A stretch of 32,000 bases of DNA from positions 600,001 through 632,000 of the forward strand of contig NZ_CP036280.1 of the NCBI RefSeq assembly GCF_007748075.1, in the 5' to 3' direction. A program made the translations under genes and the position numbers. Position 1 is the stretch's first letter. The number at the start of each line of letters is the position of its first letter. The notes under the pieces were generated by a model. It worked only from the letters and a program-made list of their open reading frames with translations. It searched no databases and had not been told where the DNA came from. The DNA comes from Mucisphaera calidilacus (GTDB taxonomy: Bacteria > Planctomycetota > Phycisphaerae > Phycisphaerales > Phycisphaeraceae). This document shows positions 5,111 through 21,012 of this stretch, piece by piece.

Positions 5111-5184
5111 AGGCCGCGGTGGGATTCGAACCCACGAATCGCGGATTTGCAATCCGCTCCCTTAGTCCACTCGGGCACGCGGCC
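5111..5184 (-). tRNA. tRNA-Cys (anticodon GCA); 3' CCA not encoded
   Basis: Minus-strand sequence GGCCGCGTGCCCGAGTGGACTAAGGGAGCGGATTGCAAATCCGCGATTCGTGGGTTCGAATCCCACCGCGGCCT folds as a cloverleaf. Acceptor stem is 7 bp (GGCCGCG/CGCGGCC). Anticodon stem is GCGGA/TCCGC with loop TTGCAAA. T arm is GTGGG-TTCGAAT-CCCAC. Total 74 nt. Confidence 0.9.
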
Positions 5185-8638: not shown

Positions 8639-8723
8639 AGCCCGTGAAAAACACGTAATCAAATTACGGATCAGCCCGGCCCCTCGATACAATGAGGGCT
8701 TGCGAGCACCCGAAGGGAAACCC

Positions 8724-9566
8724 ATGCGCCCACGCCAAGCCTTCACACTCATCGAACTCCTCGTCGTCGTCAGCATCATCGCGCTGCTCATAGGCATCCT
8801 CCTACCCTCCCTCGCCGCCGCTCGCGCCTCCGCGAAGCAGACCCAGTGCATGTCCAACCTGCGGCAGATCGGCATCGCACTCGCCAGCTACGAGGTCTCC
8901 GAAAAAGCCTACCCCGCCATCTGGACCCACAACGTCCCCACCGGCTGGAAATCACGCATCGACACCTACCTCTCCGCACAGGCACTCGAACTCGACGAGA
9001 CCGTCATGCAGTGCCCCGCCGTCGACCACGACGAGCTCTACAACGCACCCTCCGACGTCGAACGCGGTTTCATCGCCGCCTCCTACGGCCTCAACGGAGC
9101 CCTCCAGCTCCCCCAGTGGTCCTACAAATCCGCCGTCGTCCCCAACCCCGCACAGATCGTCCTCGCCGGCGAACAACCCGTCGAAATCCTCGAAGCCATC
9201 ATCACCGCCGACGGCTACGGCGTCCTCGCCACACCCATCATCACCGGATGGTTCGCCTCCCCCAACCACCGCGCCGATCGCGCCGTCCGACACCTCCCCG
9301 ACGACGCCTGCCTCTTCGTCTTCGTCGATGGCCACGTCGACTGGCTCAACCTCCGACAGCAGCGACGCGACGCCGGACACTGGTACTGGTGGCCCGAAGA
9401 ACAGAACATCGAGATCGAAGGCGAAATCGATGACCTCCTCCCCGACCTCCCCGACAACGGCAACGGCGGCGAGCAGGGCGGCGGTTCCGGGGGCTCCGGC
9501 GGCTCCGGCGGCGGAAACTCACCCTTCCCCAACACCAGCCCCAACATCCCCGGCTGCGGCTGCTGA
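8724..9566 (+). CDS. Prepilin-type N-terminal cleavage/methylation domain protein (DUF1559-like pseudopilin) with a Gly/Ser-rich C-terminal tail
   Basis: MRPRQAFTLIELLVVVSIIALLIGILLPSL is the canonical prepilin leader plus hydrophobic helix. The later FVDGHVDWL motif is present. The tail is GGGSGGSGGSGGG...PGCGC. The ATG at 8724 is preferred over the TTG at 8700. Confidence 0.8.
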   Translation: MRPRQAFTLIELLVVVSIIALLIGILLPSLAAARASAKQTQCMSNLRQIGIALASYEVSEKAYPAIWTHNVPTGWKSRIDTYLSAQALELDETVMQCPAVDHDELYNAPSDVERGFIAASYGLNGALQLPQWSYKSAVVPNPAQIVLAGEQPVEILEAIITADGYGVLATPIITGWFASPNHRADRAVRHLPDDACLFVFVDGHVDWLNLRQQRRDAGHWYWWPEEQNIEIEGEIDDLLPDLPDNGNGGEQGGGSGGSGGSGGGNSPFPNTSPNIPGCGC

Positions 9567-9615
9567 TCCACACCCCCAATCGGCGACGGCCTCACGCCCG
9601 CTCGGGTGGCACATT

Positions 9616-9660
9616 GCAACCGAGTCCGCGAGGTTGCTGTGCGTCCCCCCCAATCATTAT
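9616..9660 (+). repeat. Hairpin-containing intergenic repeat, copy 1
   Basis: GCAACCGAGTCCGCGAGGTTGCTGTGCGT followed by a C-run and AATCAT. The core matches copy 2 at 10768-10796 except for one base. Stem is GCAACC/GGTTGC. Confidence 0.6.
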
Positions 9661-9855: not shown

Positions 9856-10554
9856 ATGCCGCAACGGCTGAACATAACCTGTCTTGCACTCCTCGCCATC
9901 ACCGGCTTTGCCGCCACCCTCACTTCTGCCGACACCGCGACGATCCTCGCAGACGCCACCGGGAACTACGACGTCAACGGCAGCGGCTACGCCGCCGGCG
10001 CACTCAACACCTTCGAGATCGTGAGCACCGACTTCCTGCCCGGGCCGTTCGGCCGCAACGCACTGCTCCTATTCGACACCGCCAACGCCCTCCCTCCCGC
10101 AGTCACCATCAATAAGATCGAGTTCGCCTACGCCATCCGCGATACAGAACCCGGCTCCGCAGACATTCTCCTCGAAAGTCTGCTCGGCCCATTGTCCCTC
10201 GGCGGAGCAACCATCGCCGCTCAATCACACACCCCACAGGGAAGCATCCCATCCGCTCAGGGCCCAGGCATCATCTCACTCCACGCCTCACTCGTCTCAG
10301 CCGACCTGCTCGATCCAAACGGCCGGTTCGCCCTCCGACTCACCGCCGCAGAACCGTCATTCACGAATGTAGAATTCGCCGGCTCCGGCAACTCCTCCCA
10401 CAACCAACGCAACCCTGTCCGCCCACGCCTCATCATCGACTACACGCTAATCCCAGAGCCTTCGACCGCCGCCGTCCTCCTCACCTCTCTCGGACTGAGC
10501 ACCCAACGTCGGCGACCACGGACACCAAACAGACTTGTGGATCTCGGCAGCTGA
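9856..10554 (+). CDS. Secreted PEP-CTERM sorting-domain protein
   Basis: Signal peptide (ITCLALLAITGFAATLTSA). C-terminal IPEPSTAAVLLTSLGLSTQRRR is PEP + TM helix + Arg cluster. Codon bias matches the local host strand bias. Confidence 0.75.
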   Translation: MPQRLNITCLALLAITGFAATLTSADTATILADATGNYDVNGSGYAAGALNTFEIVSTDFLPGPFGRNALLLFDTANALPPAVTINKIEFAYAIRDTEPGSADILLESLLGPLSLGGATIAAQSHTPQGSIPSAQGPGIISLHASLVSADLLDPNGRFALRLTAAEPSFTNVEFAGSGNSSHNQRNPVRPRLIIDYTLIPEPSTAAVLLTSLGLSTQRRRPRTPNRLVDLGS

Positions 10555-10725: not shown

Positions 10726-10763
10726 GCACCCCCACGAGCCCCAAGCGCAAGCTTGGGGTGCCA

Positions 10764-10815
10764 CACAGCAACCGAGTCCCCGAGGTTGCTGTGCGTAATC
10801 ATCCCCAATCCTGAC
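10764..10815 (+). repeat. Hairpin-containing intergenic repeat, copy 2
   Basis: CACAGCAACC-GAGTCCCCGA-GGTTGCTGTG is a perfect 10-bp stem, followed by CGTAATCATCCCCAATCC. It is homologous to 9616-9660. Confidence 0.6.
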
Positions 10816-11180
10816 CGGCACCCAAGGCCCAGCCGAAGGACTACGACACCTGCGCCGGAACACAGGCACAAGTGTCACTGCAAGCAGAGTGGGTGTTGAG
10901 GCCACGGCCGCCGTCAGGGCGACCTCATCGAGTTGATCAGCGTCGATGACAACGCGTGAAATGCCTCCTTGAATCTCCCACGCGTAGCCCTGCAGGTCAC
11001 CACGAACCACAGCGATATCGAATGAGCAGGTACTACGCAGTTGAGTTATTAAACACGGCCCGGCAACGAGATGGGTATGATGACGATCTAAGACGCAATT
11101 GACCTTCCCCCCTGAACCGAGTCCGGAAGTTATGGGAGACTTCCCGCGTTCTGGGCGTCATCAGGAAGGAAGCGTCATCG

Positions 11181-11447
11181 ATGAGCAGAAAGCGTCATTT
11201 GGCCGAAGAGATTGTGAACAAGCTGCGTGAAGCCGATGTGCTGCTGGGCCAAGGCCGGACGGTGGCTCAGGCGTGCAGGCAACTGGGCGTGGGTGAGCAG
11301 ACGTACTACCGCTGGCGTCGGGAGTACGGGGGGATGAAGGTCGACCAGGCCCGCAAGTTCAAGGAGCTCGAGCGTGATGACGAGGGGCCGCTGACGCGGC
11401 GGATCGTCGCGTTGGCGTCGATGTACGGAGCTTCAACGGCAAGCTGA
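11181..11447 (+). pseudogene. IS3-family OrfA (HTH) N-terminal fragment fused to junk
   Basis: MSRKRHLAEEIVNKLREADVLLGQGRTVAQACRQLGVGEQTYYRWRREYGGMKVDQARKFKELE is the typical IS3 OrfA. The leucine-zipper and frameshift region is missing. Confidence 0.75.
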
Positions 11448-11647
11448 GGGATGAACTGCTCAACGGCGAGCTCTTTTACACGCTCAAGGAAGCGAAGGTC
11501 CTCATCGAGCGGTGGCGACGTCATTACAACACGATCCGGCCTCATTCGTCGCTGGACTACCGGCCACCCGCACCCGAAACCATCACTGCAGAGCCGGGCT
11601 CCGCTCCGCTACGCCCGCCTCTGCAAACCAGCCTCGGTCTACCGTAG
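11429..11647 (+). pseudogene. IS3-family OrfB (DDE integrase) C-terminal fragment
   Basis: Translation is SFNGKLRDELLNGELFYTLKEAKVLIERWRRHYNTIRPHSSLDYRPPAPE...*. This is the conserved end of rve-domain IS3 transposases. Confidence 0.75.
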
Positions 11648-11817
11648 ACTGTGGGCCGAATCGTGGGGGAAGGTCAAGGAGGCTACATGGCGAAGCGTTT
11701 GAGTCAGATGAGACGACTCGGTGATTGGTGGCCGCTCCTCTGCGAGGCACCCAAAGCCACTGCACACCTCATCGTTCGCGTGTCCATATTTGCCATGACT
11801 ATCGCGGAGACTTGGTG

Positions 11818-12624
11818 ATGGCGGACTCTGGCGAACGCTTCTCCCGCCGCCTCGGCGTCCGCCCCCGTGGTGATGGGCCGCTGATTCACCACGACGCGCC
11901 GGAGTCCCTACTGGTGGGAACCATATCGCTGCTGCACGACCAGTTGGACAAGTCGCCATCATGGATCCGCGGCATGATCTGTGGGGTACGGCGCGTTCGT
12001 CCAGATCCGAGCAACTGGTCGCAGTACCCCAACATCTGGGGCGAGGCGCAGGACCTGGTTTACAGTGCCGAGTGGTTCGAGTTCTACGACTTCGTGGAAG
12101 CGTGCGCGGACTCTCTTGAACAGAGCGAAGAACTCGACCACTTTGAGTCAGCGATGAATCAACTCTTTGAGGAAGAGCACATCGGCTGGCGTCTCGTCGA
12201 CGGGGTCTTGGAGATTCAGGGTGACAAACTCCTTGAGGATCTGATCGAGGAGTCGCACGAGGAGCTGGAGGCAACGAGTTTCAACGTTGCGTCCCAGGAG
12301 TTGCGGGAGGCCCGGACCGATCTCTCGCGACGACCGGACCCCGATCTCTCGGGCGCCGTCCACCACGCGATGGCCGCTTTGGAGGCTGTCGCGAGACAGG
12401 TCACCGGCGAGCCCAAGAAGACGCTCGGCGACATCATCAAGCGGAATCCAGGGTTGCTCCCGCCCCCTGTCGATGAAGCCGCTACAAAGCTCTGGGGATT
12501 CGCCTCCGAGCAAGGACGACACGGCAGCGAAGGTCGCACGCTCAAATGGGCGGAGACGATGCTCGTCGTCGGAACGGCGGCGGCGTTGTGCTCCTACCTA
12601 ATCGCAAAGCAAGAGGAGATGTGA
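11818..12624 (+). CDS. AbiJ-like protein: AbiJ-NTD4-type N-terminus + HEPN-like C-terminal module (cassette gene A)
   Basis: GGAGA lies about 8 nt upstream of the ATG at 11818. The N-terminus ERFSRRLGVRP...ESLLVGT resembles the FS.R.G.KP start of the AbiJ_NTD4 family. The C-terminus AMAALEAVARQVTG..KKTLGDII...ATKLWGFASEQGRHGSEG..KWAETMLVVGTAAALCSYLI follows the '..AvE....tG...tLg....LyGf.S...G.RH' pattern I associate with the HEPN-like end of these proteins. Assignment is from memory, not an HMM. Confidence 0.6.
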   Translation: MADSGERFSRRLGVRPRGDGPLIHHDAPESLLVGTISLLHDQLDKSPSWIRGMICGVRRVRPDPSNWSQYPNIWGEAQDLVYSAEWFEFYDFVEACADSLEQSEELDHFESAMNQLFEEEHIGWRLVDGVLEIQGDKLLEDLIEESHEELEATSFNVASQELREARTDLSRRPDPDLSGAVHHAMAALEAVARQVTGEPKKTLGDIIKRNPGLLPPPVDEAATKLWGFASEQGRHGSEGRTLKWAETMLVVGTAAALCSYLIAKQEEM

Positions 12625-13511
12625 TGGCTCTTAAGCGACGCTGGATCGAGGTGCATCGGCTCACCATCTCCGGTCTTGAAGACGGGACCGCATACGGTTC
12701 GTTCTTGCGCGACACGCGAAACAAGATCGAGCAGCTTGAGAACACGGTACGAGACCAGGGCGGTAAGTCGCACGCGTTGTATGAAGCCAAGGTCATCAAG
12801 AGCCGGCTTCGTATGCGGTTTCTGAGCTACACCACCGGATACCGCCCCGATATCCTGAATACTGACGGCTACGCGATCGAGCCCAATCCCCTCGCTGACT
12901 CACAGACCGGCGTGGAGTGGACGCATGTTCTTGGTGCTCGCGTGAATGGCCGCTACTTGCTCTTATGCGAGAAGGTGCAGTCGGGCATCTGGCCGTCCAG
13001 CATCGAGCACTACCTCCAGTGGATGATCGACAAAGTGCATGGCCAGGAGTGGGTGGGCGATAAGGAGGAGGACGACGAGAACATCACCGTCAGCCTTGAG
13101 CCGGAAGCCGGGGCCGCCTTTGTGACGCGGATCGATGACCTGACACGCGTTCGGCTCGCGACCGTCCGCACCGTCCGACCGAACCCAGGCTGGATAGACC
13201 TTGAGAACGAGCTCGCCAGCGAGGCTGACGACTCCAAGGCTCAGAAGGCTGATGTCACGATGACCGCTCGCCGCGAGGCGTCGCTCTCGAAGACCAAAGG
13301 CATTGTCGGAGCGATCAAAAGGATGTTTGCCCGCAAGGAGCTGGACTACGCCGCGATCGAAGGCGAGCGGGAAGACGGGCAGAAGGACCACTTCACGACA
13401 AAGAAGCTCGTCGAACGGAGACGGCTCTCTCTGAAACTCGATGAGGGCGGTCAAGTCGATCATAGCGACGCATGGACCAGGCTGGGCGAGATGATGGACC
13501 AACAGGACTGA
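12624..13511 (+). CDS. Hypothetical 295-aa soluble protein, no family recognised (cassette gene B)
   Basis: ATG overlaps the stop of gene A (TGATG). A strong SD, AAGAGGAG, lies at 12611-12618. It has an acidic central stretch (GDKEEDDEN) and a charged C-terminal third. No TM segments. Confidence 0.7.
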   Translation: MALKRRWIEVHRLTISGLEDGTAYGSFLRDTRNKIEQLENTVRDQGGKSHALYEAKVIKSRLRMRFLSYTTGYRPDILNTDGYAIEPNPLADSQTGVEWTHVLGARVNGRYLLLCEKVQSGIWPSSIEHYLQWMIDKVHGQEWVGDKEEDDENITVSLEPEAGAAFVTRIDDLTRVRLATVRTVRPNPGWIDLENELASEADDSKAQKADVTMTARREASLSKTKGIVGAIKRMFARKELDYAAIEGEREDGQKDHFTTKKLVERRRLSLKLDEGGQVDHSDAWTRLGEMMDQQD

Positions 13512-13512
13512 C

Positions 13513-14079
13513 ATGTACCACGAGATTGGAGAATTCCTGTGGCACATGGGACGCCGCCAGAAGCTCTGGAAGGACGGCGAGCTGTGGACTGCGCTCATTC
13601 TTGGCGGGCTGGCAGGTTGGTTGTTCTACTGTGACCCAGCCGCCGTGGATCTTGTCCGCGAGCGATTCGGTGAACTACTGACTGTAGCGAGCATCGTCTT
13701 CGGCTTCGTGCTGACCACGCTGTTCTTTTACATCCAGGCGGCTGGCGAGTGGTCTCGGGATCCACGAGTTGGCCGCGTCGCAGAGAAACTCGTGGACTGG
13801 CACGTTTGGACGGTAATGTGCCTTCTGGCACTTGTCGGACTGATCATCGTGCTCTGGATCGCTAAGGGATTCTTCACCGGCGGCCGCCTTCGCTCCGCAA
13901 TCTCCCACGCGACCCTCGTGTTTCTCGCGGCCTATTGCAGCTTCCAGATCATCAACCACGTTCTCACCGTCCGCTGGGTGTTCCGGAAGCGTTCCGTACT
14001 GAAGGACGGCCCAGCACCACATGATCAACGATCAGATACCTCCGAGGCAGGCATCGGAACCGACACGGAGGACAAGTGA
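13513..14079 (+). CDS. Integral membrane protein, about 4 predicted TM helices, short acidic tail (cassette gene C)
   Basis: Starts 1 nt after the gene B stop. Hydrophobic segments are LWTALILGGLAGWLFY, LLTVASIVFGFVLTTLFFYI, VWTVMCLLALVGLIIVLWIA and ATLVFLAAYCSFQIINHVL. Confidence 0.7.
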   Translation: MYHEIGEFLWHMGRRQKLWKDGELWTALILGGLAGWLFYCDPAAVDLVRERFGELLTVASIVFGFVLTTLFFYIQAAGEWSRDPRVGRVAEKLVDWHVWTVMCLLALVGLIIVLWIAKGFFTGGRLRSAISHATLVFLAAYCSFQIINHVLTVRWVFRKRSVLKDGPAPHDQRSDTSEAGIGTDTEDK

Positions 14080-14441
14080 GTCCAACACTTCCATCCATCG
14101 AGCACCGCGACGCTGTCTTCGTAAGCCACGCGAATCCCGAAGACAACGCTATTGCGACCTGGCTCACTCTACGACTAACGCGCGAGGGCTACCGCGTGTG
14201 GTGCGATGTCGTCAAGCTTCGCGGCGGCGACGACTTCTGGAAGAACATTGAAGCAGCTATACGGCTACGCACTCGCCGCTTCATCTTTGTGACCTCACGT
14301 GTGTCCAATCAGAAGCCGGGAACACTCAAGGAACTCGCTATCGCTGAGGGAGTGGCCCGTACTCTGGGTGAGAACCGCTTCATCATCCCCGTCAAGGTTG
14401 ATGATCTCCCGTATGGTGAGCACAACATCCAGATCAACTGA
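14076..14441 (+). CDS. TIR-domain protein (cassette gene D); 3' end interrupted by an IS3 fragment, so probably truncated
   Basis: GTG start overlaps the gene C stop (GTGA), and GGAGGA lies just upstream. VFVSHANPEDNAIATWLTLRLTREGYRVWCDVVKLRGGDDFWKNIEAAIR..RRFIFVTSRVSNQKPGTLKELAIA is a TIR_2-type fold pattern. A Glu (E86) sits at the expected catalytic position. The stop TGA (14439-14441) is the first three bases of the IS left inverted repeat. Confidence 0.75.
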   Translation: MSPTLPSIEHRDAVFVSHANPEDNAIATWLTLRLTREGYRVWCDVVKLRGGDDFWKNIEAAIRLRTRRFIFVTSRVSNQKPGTLKELAIAEGVARTLGENRFIIPVKVDDLPYGEHNIQIN

Positions 14442-14592
14442 CCTTCCCCCCTGAACCGAGTCCGGATGTTGTGGGAGACTTCCCGCGTTCTGGACGCCAT
14501 CAGGAAGGAAAGATCGATGAGCAGGAAGCGTCATTCGGCCGAGGAGATTATGAACAAGCTTCGAGAGGCGGAGGTGTTGATGAGCCAAGGTG
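14439..14592 (+). mobile_element. IS3-family left-end fragment (IRL + first ~25 codons of orfA), a diverged relative of the element at 11100
   Basis: TGACCTTCCCCCCTGAACCGAGTCCGGA... is identical for 28 nt to the IRL at 11100, then roughly 85-90% similar by eye. MSRKRHSAEEIMNKLREAEVLMSQG follows, and homology is lost near 14592. Confidence 0.8.
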
Positions 14593-14651
14593 ACCTGGTC
14601 CACAGCCGGGGCCGGTCCAGATTGTCGGGCACGGCCAGCTTTCATCGTGAA

Positions 14652-14830
14652 TCATGCTGCTTGCCTGTAGTCATGATTCAGAAGACCGCCGAGGATACGC
14701 TCGCGGCGAATCGAGCCCACCGAAGTCGGTGGTGGACGGCCTGTCAAGGCCTCGTAACCGCGATGGAACGTCCTGAAGGGTCCACGCTTGGAGTGACGGA
14801 ATAAAGAATCCTTGGCGCGATGCCCGCTTG
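14652..14830 (-). pseudogene. Possible C-terminal remnant of a different rve-type transposase
   Basis: The minus-strand translation ...GSIRRERILGGLLNHDYRQAA* resembles the '..I.RRERLGGLL..YYR.AA' C-terminal end common in integrase-core transposases. The upstream part is degenerate. Confidence 0.35.
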
Positions 14831-14924
14831 CCCTGCAGCAGGGGGGCGGAGCGGGTGAAACCCCGCCCTTCCCGACTCATACGGCCATGTTGAACATAAT
14901 CAGTAAATCTAATGGGTATCGCGT

Positions 14925-15734
14925 CTAACGTTCCAAGGCCGAATCGCGATGCGAATTGACCACGTCGCTTGTGTGGTCGAGTAGTTCAAGGCCACCCGGT
15001 AATCCATGGCCAGGAACCACGATCTTTGTTTGCGGATACTTAGTCTTTAGTCGTTGCATTGAACTAGACCAAGCTAGGAGATCGGCGTCACCAATGTAAC
15101 CCGGTGTCTTCCGATCCATCTCGTAAACCGCACACCCACCGAAGAGCACACCCGAATCCGGTACATAGACCACTAAGTTGTCTACGCTGTGGGCTGGTCC
15201 CGGATAGAAAATTTCCATCGGCCCAAATCTGACCGCATCGCCCGGCTCTGCCAGGCCATCTATTGATTGCCGAGGGATTTGGTTACCCTCCGCTTTTGCC
15301 AGACGTTTCGTTAGAGGGGTGCCGTAGGTGGCCACCCCTGCCGCATCGAGCACGTCCATGCCCTCGACGCAGTCGTCATGGAAGTGCATGGCTATAGCTG
15401 AACGCACCGGCAAGCCAATTTCCGTTTTAAGGGCCGTAAGCAGCGCTTCGGTGTTCTTATCGCCCCAGGCCGTGTCGACCAGGATCAATTCGTTACCGTC
15501 GCGAACGACCAGACCATTCGCCGGATACATCACGCCGCCTACCTCACGGACGGCGACATGGACCCAGACACCATTGCGTATCTCATGCAACCGTGCTTCA
15601 CCGGGGGGCGTCTCGGCCAACCCTGGATGGTTCTGCGCTATTTCAGCCACCGTCAGCGATTGATTGGCGTCGGACGGTGGCGGTGCCGCAACGCAACCCG
15701 ATAAGAAGAGCAAACATAAAGCGAAATATTTCAT
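14925..15734 (-). CDS. Subclass B1 metallo-beta-lactamase, VIM-like, with lipoprotein signal peptide
   Basis: 269 aa from the ATG at 15734. Lipobox MKYFALCLLFLSGC. Zinc ligands are all present: HFHDD (H116/H118/D120), GPAHSVDN (H196), GGCAV (C221), PGHGLPGG (H263). Long collinear matches to VIM as I recall it: NGLVVRDG.EL.L.DTAWG.KNT, IGLPV, DVL.AAGVATY, GDAVRFGP.E.FYPG.AHS.DNLVVYVP, PGHGLPGGL.LL.HT..VV. GC is lower than in flanking genes. Confidence 0.85.
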   Translation of the reverse strand: MKYFALCLLFLSGCVAAPPPSDANQSLTVAEIAQNHPGLAETPPGEARLHEIRNGVWVHVAVREVGGVMYPANGLVVRDGNELILVDTAWGDKNTEALLTALKTEIGLPVRSAIAMHFHDDCVEGMDVLDAAGVATYGTPLTKRLAKAEGNQIPRQSIDGLAEPGDAVRFGPMEIFYPGPAHSVDNLVVYVPDSGVLFGGCAVYEMDRKTPGYIGDADLLAWSSSMQRLKTKYPQTKIVVPGHGLPGGLELLDHTSDVVNSHRDSALER

Positions 15735-16120
15735 ACAACCTAGATTGACCATAACCATCAACGTGGTCAAGCGGGTCTCTCTGCATGAACCTCTGTGCCT
15801 GAGGGTGGAGTACGCGTGCCCGATTGTCCATGAGGCCGACGATCTCGTCTTGGGCCAGCCCCTGGTGACCGAAGGCACAGAGAGCCACGGGCGATGAGGC
15901 GTAGGCAGAGCGGAACAAGTCGCTGCGCGGCGCCTTCGGCGTCGAACCGCGCGTGCGTCCGGCTTCGCCTGCCGCTGCGTGTTCTCATCCCGCTGGTCAT
16001 GTTTCGGGCTCCTCATCATCACCCGCCGAAACCCCATCCCAAAACCGATACTTTCTTTCACCCCCACCCCCTGATTCCGGGCGTCGCGCGCACAAGGACG
16101 GTATTCGTGCGCACATCGTG

Positions 16121-16235
16121 ACCAAAAACAGGCCCTTTTTGGACCAAAACGCTCCAAAACGGACCAAAACGCTCCAAAACGGACGAAAACGAACCCAAAA
16201 CGCTCGAAAACGACCCGAAACGAACCCGAAAAAGT
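16121..16235. repeat. Helically phased A-tract array (about 10 units of ~10 bp), including a perfect 20-bp tandem duplication
   Basis: From 16141 the units are ggaccaaaac gctccaaaac ggaccaaaac gctccaaaac ggacgaaaac gaacccaaaac gctcgaaaac gacccgaaac gaacccgaaaaag. It is non-coding, about 400-500 bp upstream of the MBL start and just downstream of the amidohydrolase stop. Confidence 0.8.
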
Positions 16236-16277
16236 GTAAATTCCTGCAAAGTCGTCAGATTGTGCGCGCCTCACCCG

Positions 16278-17306
16278 TCAACGCACCGCCGTCTCGTCCC
16301 CGAAGAACCCCCGCGGCGCATCCTGGTACACCTGCCTCAGCAGCTCATCATCAAACCCCGCACCCCGCAACAACGCCGTCGAATCCTCCGGCAGACTCGG
16401 GTCCACCATCGACAGATCCGGGTCCACGATCGGGCTGGGTCCGTCATAATTAGTTTCCAGTAAAGTCTTTAACGACCAGTACCGGCTCGCGTACAGGTCG
16501 TAGTCGATGTTCGCGTCCGTCGTCACGATGTCGCTGCCGAACAGTACTCGCCCCGGATTCCGACGGCAGAAATCTCGGAACGCGTCCGGCCGCTTGCTCA
16601 GCTCACGCACCATCCACTTCGTCGCCGACGTATCCACCACGTAATTCGGGTACGTGTCTATAAGTACTTGTAAATACTCAAGATCCTCAGGCGACCCGCC
16701 CATGTGGGCCCCCAGCCACGGCACATCCCCATACCGGTCCATCACCCGCCGCAGACGGTCGAAGTGCTCCCGCTTCGTGCCATAACGACTGCTATCCGAA
16801 TACTTTGTAGCAAACCACGTGTCCGGGTCCCCGACGTGGCTCATGAACTTCATCCCCAGCGACTTCGCCAGGTCCATCGCCTCAAACCGGATCGGCGAAT
16901 CGATCCAGAAGTGCTCCGCCAGGTCCAGACCCCGCGGCGCCGCCCAGAACTTGCAGATCATGCACCCCCGCTCCGCGAACGCCTCGATGCGTTTAAGCCA
17001 ATGTGAAGTAAAGGTTTCCGGATTATCGCGCTCCTCGTAATTCGGCACCGCGATGAAGGCGATCCGCTTGCCCCACCGCTCCGCCAACGCGTCCACCTGC
17101 TCCATCCGGTTGGTCATCGACCACGTCTTGGTGATGCCGTAGTCGTCGGCCGCATGGAAATAAACCTCTGCCGAATCAAGGGTTCCGATGTGCGTGTGCA
17201 CGTCGTAGATCGGCCCCGCGTACCGGAACGTCGCCGCCTGGGCCGCGTAATCCAGCCCCAGCATGTTCGCCGGGTTCCGCTTCACGTCGGTGGGTGTCTG
17301 GCTCAT
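16278..17306 (-). CDS. Metal-dependent amidohydrolase-fold (TIM barrel) hydrolase
   Basis: 342-aa ORF. It has the HxH motif near the N-terminus (IYDVHTHIG), plus later H and D residues (FMSHVGDP, GAHMGG, LFGSDI) typical of the amidohydrolase_2-like family. Confidence 0.7.
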   Translation of the reverse strand: MSQTPTDVKRNPANMLGLDYAAQAATFRYAGPIYDVHTHIGTLDSAEVYFHAADDYGITKTWSMTNRMEQVDALAERWGKRIAFIAVPNYEERDNPETFTSHWLKRIEAFAERGCMICKFWAAPRGLDLAEHFWIDSPIRFEAMDLAKSLGMKFMSHVGDPDTWFATKYSDSSRYGTKREHFDRLRRVMDRYGDVPWLGAHMGGSPEDLEYLQVLIDTYPNYVVDTSATKWMVRELSKRPDAFRDFCRRNPGRVLFGSDIVTTDANIDYDLYASRYWSLKTLLETNYDGPSPIVDPDLSMVDPSLPEDSTALLRGAGFDDELLRQVYQDAPRGFFGDETAVR

Positions 17307-18969: not shown

Positions 18970-20016
18970 ATGACGACACGAGCCGCGATTTTGGGGCCGA
19001 CCGGCTACGCCGGGGCCGAGCTGATCCGCCTGCTGCTGGGGCATCCCGAGGCGGAGGTGACGTACCTCGCTTCGCACCGGGACGAGCTGCCCGACCTGCG
19101 TGTGGAGTACCCGCGTCTGGCGGCGGCGTTGGACCCGGCGGTGGCGGTAGCGCGGCCGGTGGATCCGGGGGCGATCGCGGCGGCGGCGGACGTGGCGTTC
19201 CTGGCGTTGCCGCACAAGGCGTCGATGTCGTATGCGCCGGCGCTGCTGGACGCGGGGCTGCGTGTGATTGACCTGTCGGCGGACTACCGGCTGTCGTCGG
19301 TGGAGCTGTATGAGTCGGTGTATGGCGTGGAGCACGTGGACGCGGATCGTGTGGCGGAGACGGTGTACGGGCTGCCCGAGTTTTTCCGTGAGCGGATCAC
19401 GGCGGACACGCGGCTGCTGGCTTCGCCGGGGTGTTATCCGACGGCGGCGCTGCTGGGGATCGTGCCGCTGATGCGTGGCGGGCTGGTGGATCCGGCGTCG
19501 CTGATCGTGAACGCGGCGTCGGGGACGACGGGCGCGGGGCGGAGCGCGAAGGTGGGGTTGTTGCACGCGGAGGCGAACGAGGGTTTTGCGGCGTACGGGA
19601 CGATCGGCGGTCATCGTCATCAGCCGGAGATCGGCGACGTGCTGGAGGTGCTGGGGTATCCGGGCGTGGACCCGTTGTTCGTGCCGCACCTGCTGCCTGT
19701 GGACCGGGGGATCCTGGCGACGATTTATGGCACGCCTCGGGCGGGGGTGCGTCTGGAGGATGTGGGGCGGGCGTTCGAGGTGGCTTACGGGGGTGAGCCG
19801 TTTGTGCACGTGGTGGATCATCTGCCGAGCGTGAAGCACGTGGCGGGGACGAATCACGTGCAGGTGTCGTTCCGGCTGGCGGAGACGGGCAGCGGATCGC
19901 GGCTGGTGGTGTTCGTGGCGGAGGACAACATCGTCAAGGGTTCGTCGGGTCAGGCGATTCAGGCGATGAACCTGATGTTTGGGCATGAAGAGGGGTGCGG
20001 GCTGATGGGGGTGTAG
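18970..20016 (+). CDS. argC: N-acetyl-gamma-glutamyl-phosphate reductase
   Basis: AILGPTGYAGAELIRLL (NAD-binding) and catalytic SPGCYPTAALL are present, 348 aa. The ATG at 18970 is preferred over the upstream extension. Confidence 0.9.
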   Translation: MTTRAAILGPTGYAGAELIRLLLGHPEAEVTYLASHRDELPDLRVEYPRLAAALDPAVAVARPVDPGAIAAAADVAFLALPHKASMSYAPALLDAGLRVIDLSADYRLSSVELYESVYGVEHVDADRVAETVYGLPEFFRERITADTRLLASPGCYPTAALLGIVPLMRGGLVDPASLIVNAASGTTGAGRSAKVGLLHAEANEGFAAYGTIGGHRHQPEIGDVLEVLGYPGVDPLFVPHLLPVDRGILATIYGTPRAGVRLEDVGRAFEVAYGGEPFVHVVDHLPSVKHVAGTNHVQVSFRLAETGSGSRLVVFVAEDNIVKGSSGQAIQAMNLMFGHEEGCGLMGV

Positions 20017-20158
20017 ATGGGGGCAGGTGGAGAGATCTGAGACTTTGGTGGTGCATCCTGGATTCTGCGAATTCGAGTCAGGGGTGCGGTGTGTATCGCG
20101 TCATAATATTATTTCTAGATCTTGTATTATCAATAAATCGGGCTAGCCGGAATGATTA

Positions 20159-20188
20159 GCAATGTAAGATTAGTGATAATTACATTGC
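20159..20188. promoter_or_regulatory. Perfect 9-bp inverted repeat GCAATGTAA-N12-TTACATTGC in the AT-rich leader of the orphan lipoprotein gene
   Basis: Seen directly. It lies about 70 nt upstream of the ATG at 20260. GATTAG is directly repeated at 20154 and 20168. Confidence 0.3.
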
Positions 20189-20259
20189 ATCTGTTATCAC
20201 AACATGATAGAAAAAGGAAATAGTCCACCCGATAAGACCTCGCATTTCAAGGGACATCT

Positions 20260-21012
20260 ATGCAACTGATCACAGCCGTTTTTGCACTCGCCTTGGTCAT
20301 GCTCGTCGGGTGCCAGGGGATTCATTTCGAGGATGAGGTGTTGTCGACAGCAGTCAACCCGAAGATGAAGAAACGTATTGTCTGGCCATATGATGATGCG
20401 TTGAAGCGTAATCTTGCGCAGCTGGCAGGGCATGTGATCGTAGGCGATCTTACATCAGGTTCGTTTGACCGCGGCAATCGTTACGTTGGAGAGGCGGGTG
20501 TCGAGGTCGTACCCATCGAGGCGGGTGAGATCTTTACTGCGAAGTGTGACAGCAGTGCGGCTGCTGAGGGTGTTTATCTGATGGTGACATCTTCTCTAGC
20601 TGCGAACGAAGTCGCGGAGGTTACGATCGCTGACATTAGCGAGGTGTTTATACCGTGGGACGATATACCTCGTGATGAGCTTGTCAAAGAGGGGGCGAGG
20701 GCGCGTGACGAAGGAGTTGGATGCTACTATGTACAGGCTGCAACGCTTACGTCGATCGTGATGGAACGATCGGTTGTGGTGGATTCCAACACGCAGGGGT
20801 TGGTGGGGGAGGCGTATGGGGCGAAGGGAAAGGTGCGTCACGCAAGCAAGAAATTCAGCCGTGATTATGTAGTCTCCTTGACGCTTCTTGACCTGTCGTT
20901 GATTCAGCCTGTGCCGCCCAACTCGATCCGGGGACCCTTAACCCTGCGTGAGAGTCGGGTTCAGCCAGATGGCCTGGTCGTTATCGAACAACTCTCGGGC
21001 TGGGAGGACTAG
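20260..21012 (+). CDS. Lipoprotein of unknown function
   Basis: Lipobox MQLITAVFALALVMLVGC, 250 aa. GC is visibly lower than in neighbouring genes. No family recognised. Confidence 0.6.
   Translation: MQLITAVFALALVMLVGCQGIHFEDEVLSTAVNPKMKKRIVWPYDDALKRNLAQLAGHVIVGDLTSGSFDRGNRYVGEAGVEVVPIEAGEIFTAKCDSSAAAEGVYLMVTSSLAANEVAEVTIADISEVFIPWDDIPRDELVKEGARARDEGVGCYYVQAATLTSIVMERSVVVDSNTQGLVGEAYGAKGKVRHASKKFSRDYVVSLTLLDLSLIQPVPPNSIRGPLTLRESRVQPDGLVVIEQLSGWED

Follow-up and report, generated by a model that had tools for sequence, protein, structure and literature searches.

A probable subclass B1 metallo-beta-lactamase of an environmental VIM-like clade on the chromosome of the planctomycete Mucisphaera calidilacus

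Planctomycetes have long been known for their tolerance of beta-lactams, and a gene for a VIM-like metallo-beta-lactamase on a planctomycete chromosome, next to insertion sequence (IS) material, raises the question whether it stands near the origin of the clinical VIM enzymes or is an environmental relative. The gene lies in a stretch of 32,000 nucleotides (the window, to which all positions refer unless stated otherwise) of the complete chromosome of Mucisphaera calidilacus strain Pan265 (CP036280, 3,486,541 bp), a planctomycete of the Phycisphaerae from a biofilm of a shallow hydrothermal system (PMC8882080). Its product is 100% identical to WP_145444804.1, WP_391560988.1 and QDU70649.1; the first two are named 'subclass B1 metallo-beta-lactamase [Mucisphaera calidilacus]' at NCBI, and the third was entered in the original GenBank record as 'Beta-lactamase NDM-1 precursor'. 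The gene is already annotated in public databases, yet uncharacterised, and these records agree with an original prediction, made from the letters of the window, that the chromosome is of an environmental type. The likely explanation of the locus is an intact di-zinc B1 lactamase of an environmental VIM-like clade, lipid-anchored, horizontally acquired and not near the VIM progenitor.

The open reading frame (ORF) of the lactamase gene is uninterrupted and comprises 269 codons on the minus strand, running from an ATG at 15734 to a TAG that ends at 14925. Translation starts with MKYFALCLLFLSGC; a longer stretch from the same start reads MKYFALCLLFLSGCVAAPPP. By alignment, the Zn1 ligands are His117, His119 and His182 (H116, H118 and H196 in class B beta-lactamase numbering, BBL) and the Zn2 ligands are Asp121, Cys201 and His243 (BBL D120, C221 and H263). 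None of the six ligand columns varied among the 20 clade members aligned, VIM-1, VIM-2 and VIM-61 being among them, so that the 269-residue product does carry every B1 zinc ligand, as had been predicted, and all 49 of the 49 invariant clade columns were intact. The assignment to subclass B1 was likewise confirmed by the NCBIfam model bla_subclass_B1 (NF033088), which gave 234.4 bits (E 1e-69) over profile positions 7-216 of 217 and passed its cut-off of 200, while the Pfam match was to the generic Lactamase_B domain only. An AlphaFold2 model computed from a 20-sequence alignment reached a pLDDT (predicted local distance difference test) of 91.7 and a predicted template modelling score (pTM) of 0.86, with low confidence at residues 1-30, which fits a signal peptide followed by a flexible tether. 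The model matched the alpha-beta/beta-alpha sandwich fold of B1 enzymes and, in a Foldseek search against the PDB, superposed on VIM-2 crystal structures with a template modelling (TM) score of 0.98 (target-normalised), 0.8 A root-mean-square deviation and 58% identity. Tyr224 and Arg228, substrate-side residues of the VIM-2 type, are retained. Judged by these sequence and model data, the gene encodes a genuine, intact and probably functional B1 enzyme of the environmental VIM-like clade.

VIM is clearly the nearest named family of this enzyme. In a phmmer search against all PDB chains, VIM-20, VIM-2 and VIM-1 scored about 327 bits (E about 1e-96) in alignments that ran gap-free over residues 30-266, and the next family was NDM with 160-168 bits. 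Among the NCBIfam family models, blaVIM (NF012100) scored best with 335.2 bits, followed by PYX (199), COR (198), MYX (158), NDM (145), CIM (142), CfiA (135) and CHM (127); the PYX, COR, MYX, CIM and CHM scores were all far under the respective family cut-offs, and the NDM model (NF000259) gave 145.2 bits against a cut-off of 580. Together with the Foldseek result, these searches support the predicted likeness to VIM, and with VIM as the best-scoring family the expectation of a higher identity to VIM than to other B1 clades was borne out. For the mature part, collinearity with VIM-2 at 55-65% identity had been estimated by eye, and 56.9% was computed over 232 aligned residues (51% over the full-length alignment); identities to VIM-2, VIM-1-type and VIM-7-type sequences ranged from 51 to 57%. 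The VIM alleles among the matches listed are about 73-90% identical to VIM-2, and VIM alleles are mutually at least about 73% identical, which leaves the enzyme outside the VIM family on identity, as it is on score, where its 335.2 bits fall below the blaVIM cut-off of 500. Because of this score, the identity range, the absence of attC in the region scanned (see below) and the lipobox, it is not a member of the VIM family.

VIM-1, VIM-2 and VIM-7 share with the enzyme a collinear mature domain (55-58% identical), the same six zinc ligands, and Tyr224 and Arg228. VIM enzymes have a type I signal peptide and are soluble in the periplasm, whereas a lipoprotein signal peptide is predicted here; they have Arg121, Thr115 and Asn233 in the place of Cys121, Met115 and Tyr233; and they are carried as integron gene cassettes with attC, whereas the gene here is chromosomal in a planctomycete and no attC or integron context was found in the sequence scanned around it. 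NDM-1 has the same four lipobox residues, LSGC, and likewise a flexible linker between these and its catalytic domain (PMC12326980), but is only about 36% identical (blaNDM loci) and has Lys at position 121 instead of Cys. Environmental, chromosomal B1 enzymes with a lipobox also include CIM-1, CIM-2, CJO-1 and CHM-1 from Chryseobacterium and MYX, COR and PYX from myxobacteria, which belong to other B1 lineages and indicate that NDM is not alone in being anchored to the membrane (PMC12326980, PMC13616975); environmental B1 diversity has already been covered by large surveys (PMC5637372, PMC13616975). From the same class as the host comes MBX3358097.1 (Attrah et al. 2024), a metallo-beta-lactamase-fold enzyme of the Phycisphaeraceae that cleaves nitrocefin (PMC11380404). 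Its identity to characterised enzymes does not exceed 30%, that of the lactamase described here to VIM-2 is 57%, and these reported identities set the two apart. What the locus adds is a VIM-like B1 enzyme in a cultured planctomycete, the phylum's sole biochemically characterised beta-lactamase so far being much more divergent (PMC11380404).

A HMMER scan of 1.84 billion representatives (50% clustering) found only two clusters above 290 bits, the next match having 215 bits, and this gap in the scores indicates that the VIM-like group is a well-bounded clade. Its members number at least 549. A neighbour-joining tree was constructed from 118 clade members and 31 outgroup representatives (218 trimmed columns, Kimura distances, 200 bootstraps). 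The VIM-containing clade, with the Mucisphaera enzyme inside it as foreseen for a B1 phylogeny, was split from the outgroup in 80% of the bootstraps. Within the clade, the enzyme sits on a long isolated branch and groups, with low support, with the metagenome proteins P0003-P0009 (about 58-61% identical); even the closest proteins are just about 60% identical to it. The clinical VIMs fall within a separate group of 24-25 proteins, including Parahaliea, Bowmanella and the proteins P0060 and P0061, which are 70-72% identical to VIM-2. By distance from VIM-2 in the tree set the enzyme ranks 93rd of 118, and closer relatives of VIM-2 occur in named genomes, namely Marinobacter sp. C2H3 (73.7% identity to VIM-2), a Bacteroidetes metagenome-assembled genome (MAG; partial gene, 69.6%), Parahaliea mediterranea (65.8%), a Wenzhouxiangella MAG (61.9%) and Bowmanella denitrificans (60.2%).

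The original prediction had attached weight to the gene for tracing the origin of VIM, and this part of it did not hold. A close chromosomal relative or near-progenitor of VIM, bearing on the source from which blaVIM was mobilised, would agree with VIM as the top-scoring named family, with the position inside the VIM-containing clade and its bootstrap value against the outgroup, and with a chromosomal gene adjoining IS remnants. It is nevertheless extremely improbable, given an identity of 51-57% to VIM alleles that are at least about 73% identical to one another, the rank of 93 among 118, and the closer proteins of Marinobacter, the Bacteroidetes MAG, Parahaliea and others. Moreover, the clinical VIMs nest among lipobox-free proteins, whereas the enzyme groups with lipobox-bearing ones; the blaVIM cut-off was missed (335 against 500 bits), and neither attC nor flank homology to VIM loci was detected in the regions searched. 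Because many proteins are much closer to VIM, the enzyme is uninformative on the VIM progenitor; by its sequence, it is neither a VIM allele nor near that progenitor, and can be described as a distant environmental cousin. Its practical value for tracing blaVIM is small, because dozens of environmental proteins are nearer to VIM.

The N-terminus points to a different localisation from that of the VIM enzymes. MKYFALCLLFLSGC contains a positive residue at its N-terminal end, a hydrophobic stretch and a lipobox of the form [LVI][ASTVI][GAS]C, and thereby matches the G+LPP lipoprotein pattern (Table 1). It had been noted correctly that the lipobox, LSGC, is identical to that of NDM-1, which is experimentally known to be processed (PMC12326980). 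As an NDM-style peculiarity, however, it did not stand up, since most proteins of this part of the clade carry one. Counted over proteins with complete N-termini, the lipoprotein pattern was present in 65 of 87 proteins of the enzyme's part of the clade, with a looser lipobox in 16 more, and in 2 of 24 proteins of the VIM-proximal group, 7 of 24 outgroup representatives of the tree and 32 of 119 of all B1 representatives returned. The usual lipobox in the enzyme's part of the clade is L[AT]GC, with the Cys at residue 14 as in the enzyme itself, and the VIM sequences among the matches listed had no lipobox. On these pattern counts, the lipobox is a trait of the clade and the soluble VIMs are the exception. 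That it is common in the environmental VIM-like clade but not in the VIM-proximal branch bears on a change of localisation during mobilisation. Lipidated environmental B1 enzymes have been published in the cases of CIM-1, CIM-2, CJO-1 and CHM-1 (PMC12326980), and myxobacterial B1 enzymes have been predicted to be lipoproteins (PMC13616975).

The start codon differs among three NCBI records of the lactamase, which give 281, 275 and 364 amino acids (aa), and the mechanical ORF of the frame extends over 449 aa (14925-16274). The ATG at 15734 is favoured by alignment with the homologues, because the Cys of the lipobox then has the residue number 14 that it has in most relatives. All in-frame upstream starts retain the same lipobox, and the mature lactamase is therefore unchanged by the choice of start.

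Alternatively, the enzyme could be active but soluble, with a VIM-like localisation and an unused lipobox, if signal peptidase I cuts at another site or the lipoprotein pathway of planctomycetes is ineffective on it. The myxobacterial B1 enzymes predicted as lipoproteins came out soluble in E. coli, where signal peptides can be mis-handled (PMC13616975), and the three different annotated starts, together with the short signal peptide of 14 residues that follows from the ATG at 15734, also leave room for this explanation. It is considered unlikely, since LSGC is the lipobox shown to be processed in NDM-1 (PMC12326980), each in-frame upstream start retains it, and 75% of the relatives in the same part of the clade keep the pattern, their Cys standing at the same position, a conservation that speaks for selection on the lipobox. 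The lactamase is accordingly listed here as predicted to be membrane-anchored.

A second feature of the enzyme lies beneath the Zn2 site. The original prediction had pointed to Cys at BBL 121, in HFHDDC, where VIM has Arg, and had compared it with CcrA, a comparison supported by the literature (PMC7443720). Among 120 sequences, Cys121 was found only in the lactamase and in the metagenome protein P0052, with Arg in 96%; Met115 was confined to the same two proteins, with Thr at BBL 115 in 99%. Thr115Met and Arg121Cys are coupled, because the same two proteins carry both second-shell changes. P0052 (L081 2776-3633) is 54% identical to the lactamase and is the other protein that combines Met115, Cys121 and LSGC. 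It adjoins two N_methyl proteins (L081 324-1193 and 1692-2513), whose N-termini are 56-64% identical to the N-terminus of the DUF1559-type protein of the window. When JGI metagenome contigs were scanned for further MHFHDDC variants by exact back-translation, 19 loci were returned, but all were rejected as chance matches, because no homologue is encoded at any of them (tblastn E < 1e-5).

CcrA/CfiA, MYO-1 and ECV-1 share with the lactamase the Cys that lies under the Zn2 site at BBL 121 (PMC7443720); they are distant in sequence (CfiA model 135 bits), whereas the Cys121 of the lactamase stands on a VIM-like scaffold and together with Met115. Occupancy of Zn2 is lower in the Arg121 enzymes BcII, VIM-2 and BlaB and high in the Ser121 or Cys121 enzymes IMP-1, CcrA, MYO-1 and ECV-1, and the zinc affinity of CcrA is lowered by C121R (PMC7443720). 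By analogy to these enzymes, tighter binding of Zn2 is likely to be expected from Met115 and Cys121, and this rare second shell, present on a VIM scaffold, could serve for studies of zinc affinity when metal is limiting. A wider proposal is possible but doubtful: the lipid anchor may be ancestral or prevailing in the environmental VIM-like clade, the soluble clinical VIMs having been de-lipidated secondarily, and the lactamase and P0052 may pair the anchor with a Zn2-tightening Thr115Met/Arg121Cys exchange, as an NDM-like answer to zinc scarcity on a VIM scaffold. If both the ancestral anchoring and this reading of Met115/Cys121 were true, the enzyme would offer a ready system to test whether VIM can gain NDM-type robustness through few changes.

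The genomic setting was analysed with respect to how the gene came to this chromosome. The lactamase gene has a GC content of 0.559 and a GC content at third codon positions (GC3) of 0.59; its neighbours in the segment have a GC3 of 0.65-0.74 and the flanking housekeeping genes one of 0.79-0.89. Ordinary planctomycete chromosome genes flank the segment. Those on the left encode a PALP enzyme, a redoxin fusion and, at 8700-9566, a DUF1559/N_methyl protein; those on the right begin with an amidohydrolase at 16278-17306 and continue with a HAD hydrolase, HSP20, asd, endonuclease III and MutS. Two pieces of IS3-family sequence are present. The longer one has an inverted repeat (11099-11111 and 11665-11677) that is 100% complementary, and its two coding pieces match HTH_Tnp_1 (E 2e-12) and rve_3 (E 6e-20) of Pfam, with no catalytic core; it is MITE-like (miniature inverted-repeat transposable element), because the start and the end of the transposase are kept and the catalytic core is gone. 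The shorter one, a solo left end, is 85-93% identical to 11096-11254 and matched transposases of the IS3 family weakly in tblastn (E about 0.04). The IS-like ORF 14466-14804 had no Pfam or NCBIfam match alone and was recognised only via its paralogue at 11100-11676. The claim that the lactamase is IS-associated is thus right in so far as IS3-family remnants adjoin it, but no active IS is involved, only the deleted element of 577 bp and the solo end of about 155 bp; the IS3 material consists of decayed remnants and not of active elements.

The solo end is preceded by a TIR-domain ORF, which matched the PADLOC model Aga_TIR-PNTD1-PNTD2 (short-Argonaute-associated, E 6e-45) over positions 1-108 of 443 only. 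Since only the start of the model is matched and the ORF ends exactly at the IS3 left end, it is taken as a defence gene that has been cut short and lacks its partner genes, and it identifies the segment as variable and rearranged. Between the two IS3 remnants, which bracket the genes at 11725-14079, a candidate defence protein of the AbiJ_NTD4/PDC-S32 type is encoded at 11725-12624; the ORFs 12546-13511 and 13513-14079, the latter with hydrophobic stretches, had no family match.

Integron features, which had been proposed for checking, were not recovered: no pair of R'' (RYYYAAC) and R' (GTTRRRY) core sites 50-150 nucleotides (nt) apart occurred on either strand in 14300-16400, and the ORFs scanned, which lie between about 5.7 and 25 kb, included none with an integrase domain. 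The sole tRNA, tRNA-Cys at 5111-5184, was considered as a boundary marker for the segment and rejected as too distant. The flanks of the gene (14591-14924 and 15735-16277) and six neighbouring proteins had no match in 101 related loci, VIM loci included; a tblastn search against 72,556 plasmids gave nothing above 60% identity, the best match being VIM-4 with 52.4%; and of 555 related loci in GTDB species genomes, the best 80 included no other planctomycete. The GC3 contrast, the IS3 remnants, the truncated TIR gene, the isolated sequence and the lack of other planctomycetes among these best 80 loci favour horizontal acquisition into a variable spot rich in defence genes, and it is most likely that the lactamase gene was acquired in this way.

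Taken together, the preferred explanation would work as follows. After arrival of the gene by horizontal transfer, the lactamase precursor would be exported by Sec, Cys14 would be diacylglycerol-modified by Lgt, and signal peptidase II would cut the signal peptide, so that the enzyme would stay anchored in the periplasm, its catalytic domain tethered flexibly to the anchor over about 30 residues. Penicillins, cephalosporins and carbapenems would be hydrolysed via the Zn1 (His116/His118/His196) and Zn2 (Asp120/Cys221/His263) site. The exchanges Thr115Met and Arg121Cys would remove positive charge beneath Zn2, and by analogy to CcrA, MYO-1, ECV-1 and the position-121 mutants of BcII and CcrA the occupancy or affinity of Zn2 should rise.

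Several points count against parts of this explanation. Activity, expression and localisation of the lactamase are extrapolated beyond the sequence. A consensus scan found no sigma-70-like promoter upstream of the gene, although this consensus does not cover planctomycete promoters. BBL 233 is Tyr in the lactamase, as in its closest relatives, and Asn in 90% of the clade. The tree has weak support on its internal branches. Because the neighbours of P0052 are planctomycete-like, a small lineage resident in the PVC group (Planctomycetes, Verrucomicrobia and Chlamydiae) is conceivable instead of a recent transfer. Finally, given the soluble export of the myxobacterial enzymes in E. coli, the lipobox by itself is no proof of anchoring.

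Some of these points also agree with the view that the lactamase gene is decaying or silent, a passenger left behind in a mobile region that has degraded, and without a current beta-lactamase role. Its codon composition is atypical, its neighbours (the IS end and the TIR gene fragment) are truncated, a recognisable promoter of the sigma-70 type is missing from the upstream sequence scanned, and Thr115Met, Arg121Cys and Asn233Tyr affect otherwise conserved positions. Such decay is very improbable for a full-length ORF that has no frameshift or stop, retains its metal ligands and the 49 invariant columns, and gives a confident fold model. The deviating residues are, moreover, known as natural variants of active B1 enzymes, Cys121 occurring in CcrA, MYO-1 and ECV-1 (PMC7443720), and the promoter consensus is not one for planctomycetes.

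Table 1. Positions of the lactamase gene, its predicted elements and the surrounding features in the window
Feature	Position	Strand	Basis or remark
Lactamase gene, 269-aa subclass B1 metallo-beta-lactamase of the environmental VIM-like clade	14925..15734, stop codon included	(-)	ORF, phmmer, NCBIfam, AlphaFold model
Predicted type II (lipoprotein) signal peptide MKYFALCLLFLSGC	15693..15734	(-)	G+LPP pattern match
Lipobox LSGC, residues 11-14	15693-15704	(-)	predicted
Lipidated Cys14	15693-15695	(-)	predicted
Active-site motif HFHDDC (BBL H116, F117, H118, D119, D120, C121), residues 117-122	15369..15386	(-)	Met at BBL 115 just before
Atypical-composition segment with defence-type genes, IS remnant and lactamase	11725..16130	.	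GC3 0.59-0.74 genes between host-like genes
Internally deleted IS3-family element, 577 bp	11100..11676	(+)	perfect terminal inverted repeats TGACCTTCCCCC
TIR-domain ORF, 121 aa, 5' fragment of a defence gene	14076..14441	(+)	Pfam TIR_2, E 1e-18
Solo IS3-family left end, about 155 bp (terminal repeat and first ~25 codons of orfA)	14438..14590	(+)	335 bp beyond the lactamase stop

Some further features were observed in the window. About nine head-to-tail units of 10-11 nt, CCAAAACGNN, with phased A/T tracts, occupy 16134-16231 and occur only once in the window. The array sits in the 543-bp gap between the stop of the amidohydrolase gene and the start of the lactamase gene, with three terminator-like minus-strand hairpins inside, and may act as curved DNA, as a terminator or as an array bound by protein. 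Two copies of a 41-nt repeat, at 9604-9644 and 10756-10796, are 90% identical, and the repeat contains the hairpin GCAACC...GGTTGC; the copies bracket the ORF 9856-10554, which had a weak PEP-CTERM match only, and the 11-mer AACCGAGTCCG is common to this repeat and the IS3 terminal repeat. The deepest GC dip of the window (0.478) lies at 20001-20500. In this dip, between asd and the endonuclease III gene, the ORF 20260-21012 encodes 250 aa with a GC content of 0.547, a GC3 of 0.60 and no Pfam, NCBIfam or PADLOC match, and may represent a second foreign insertion.

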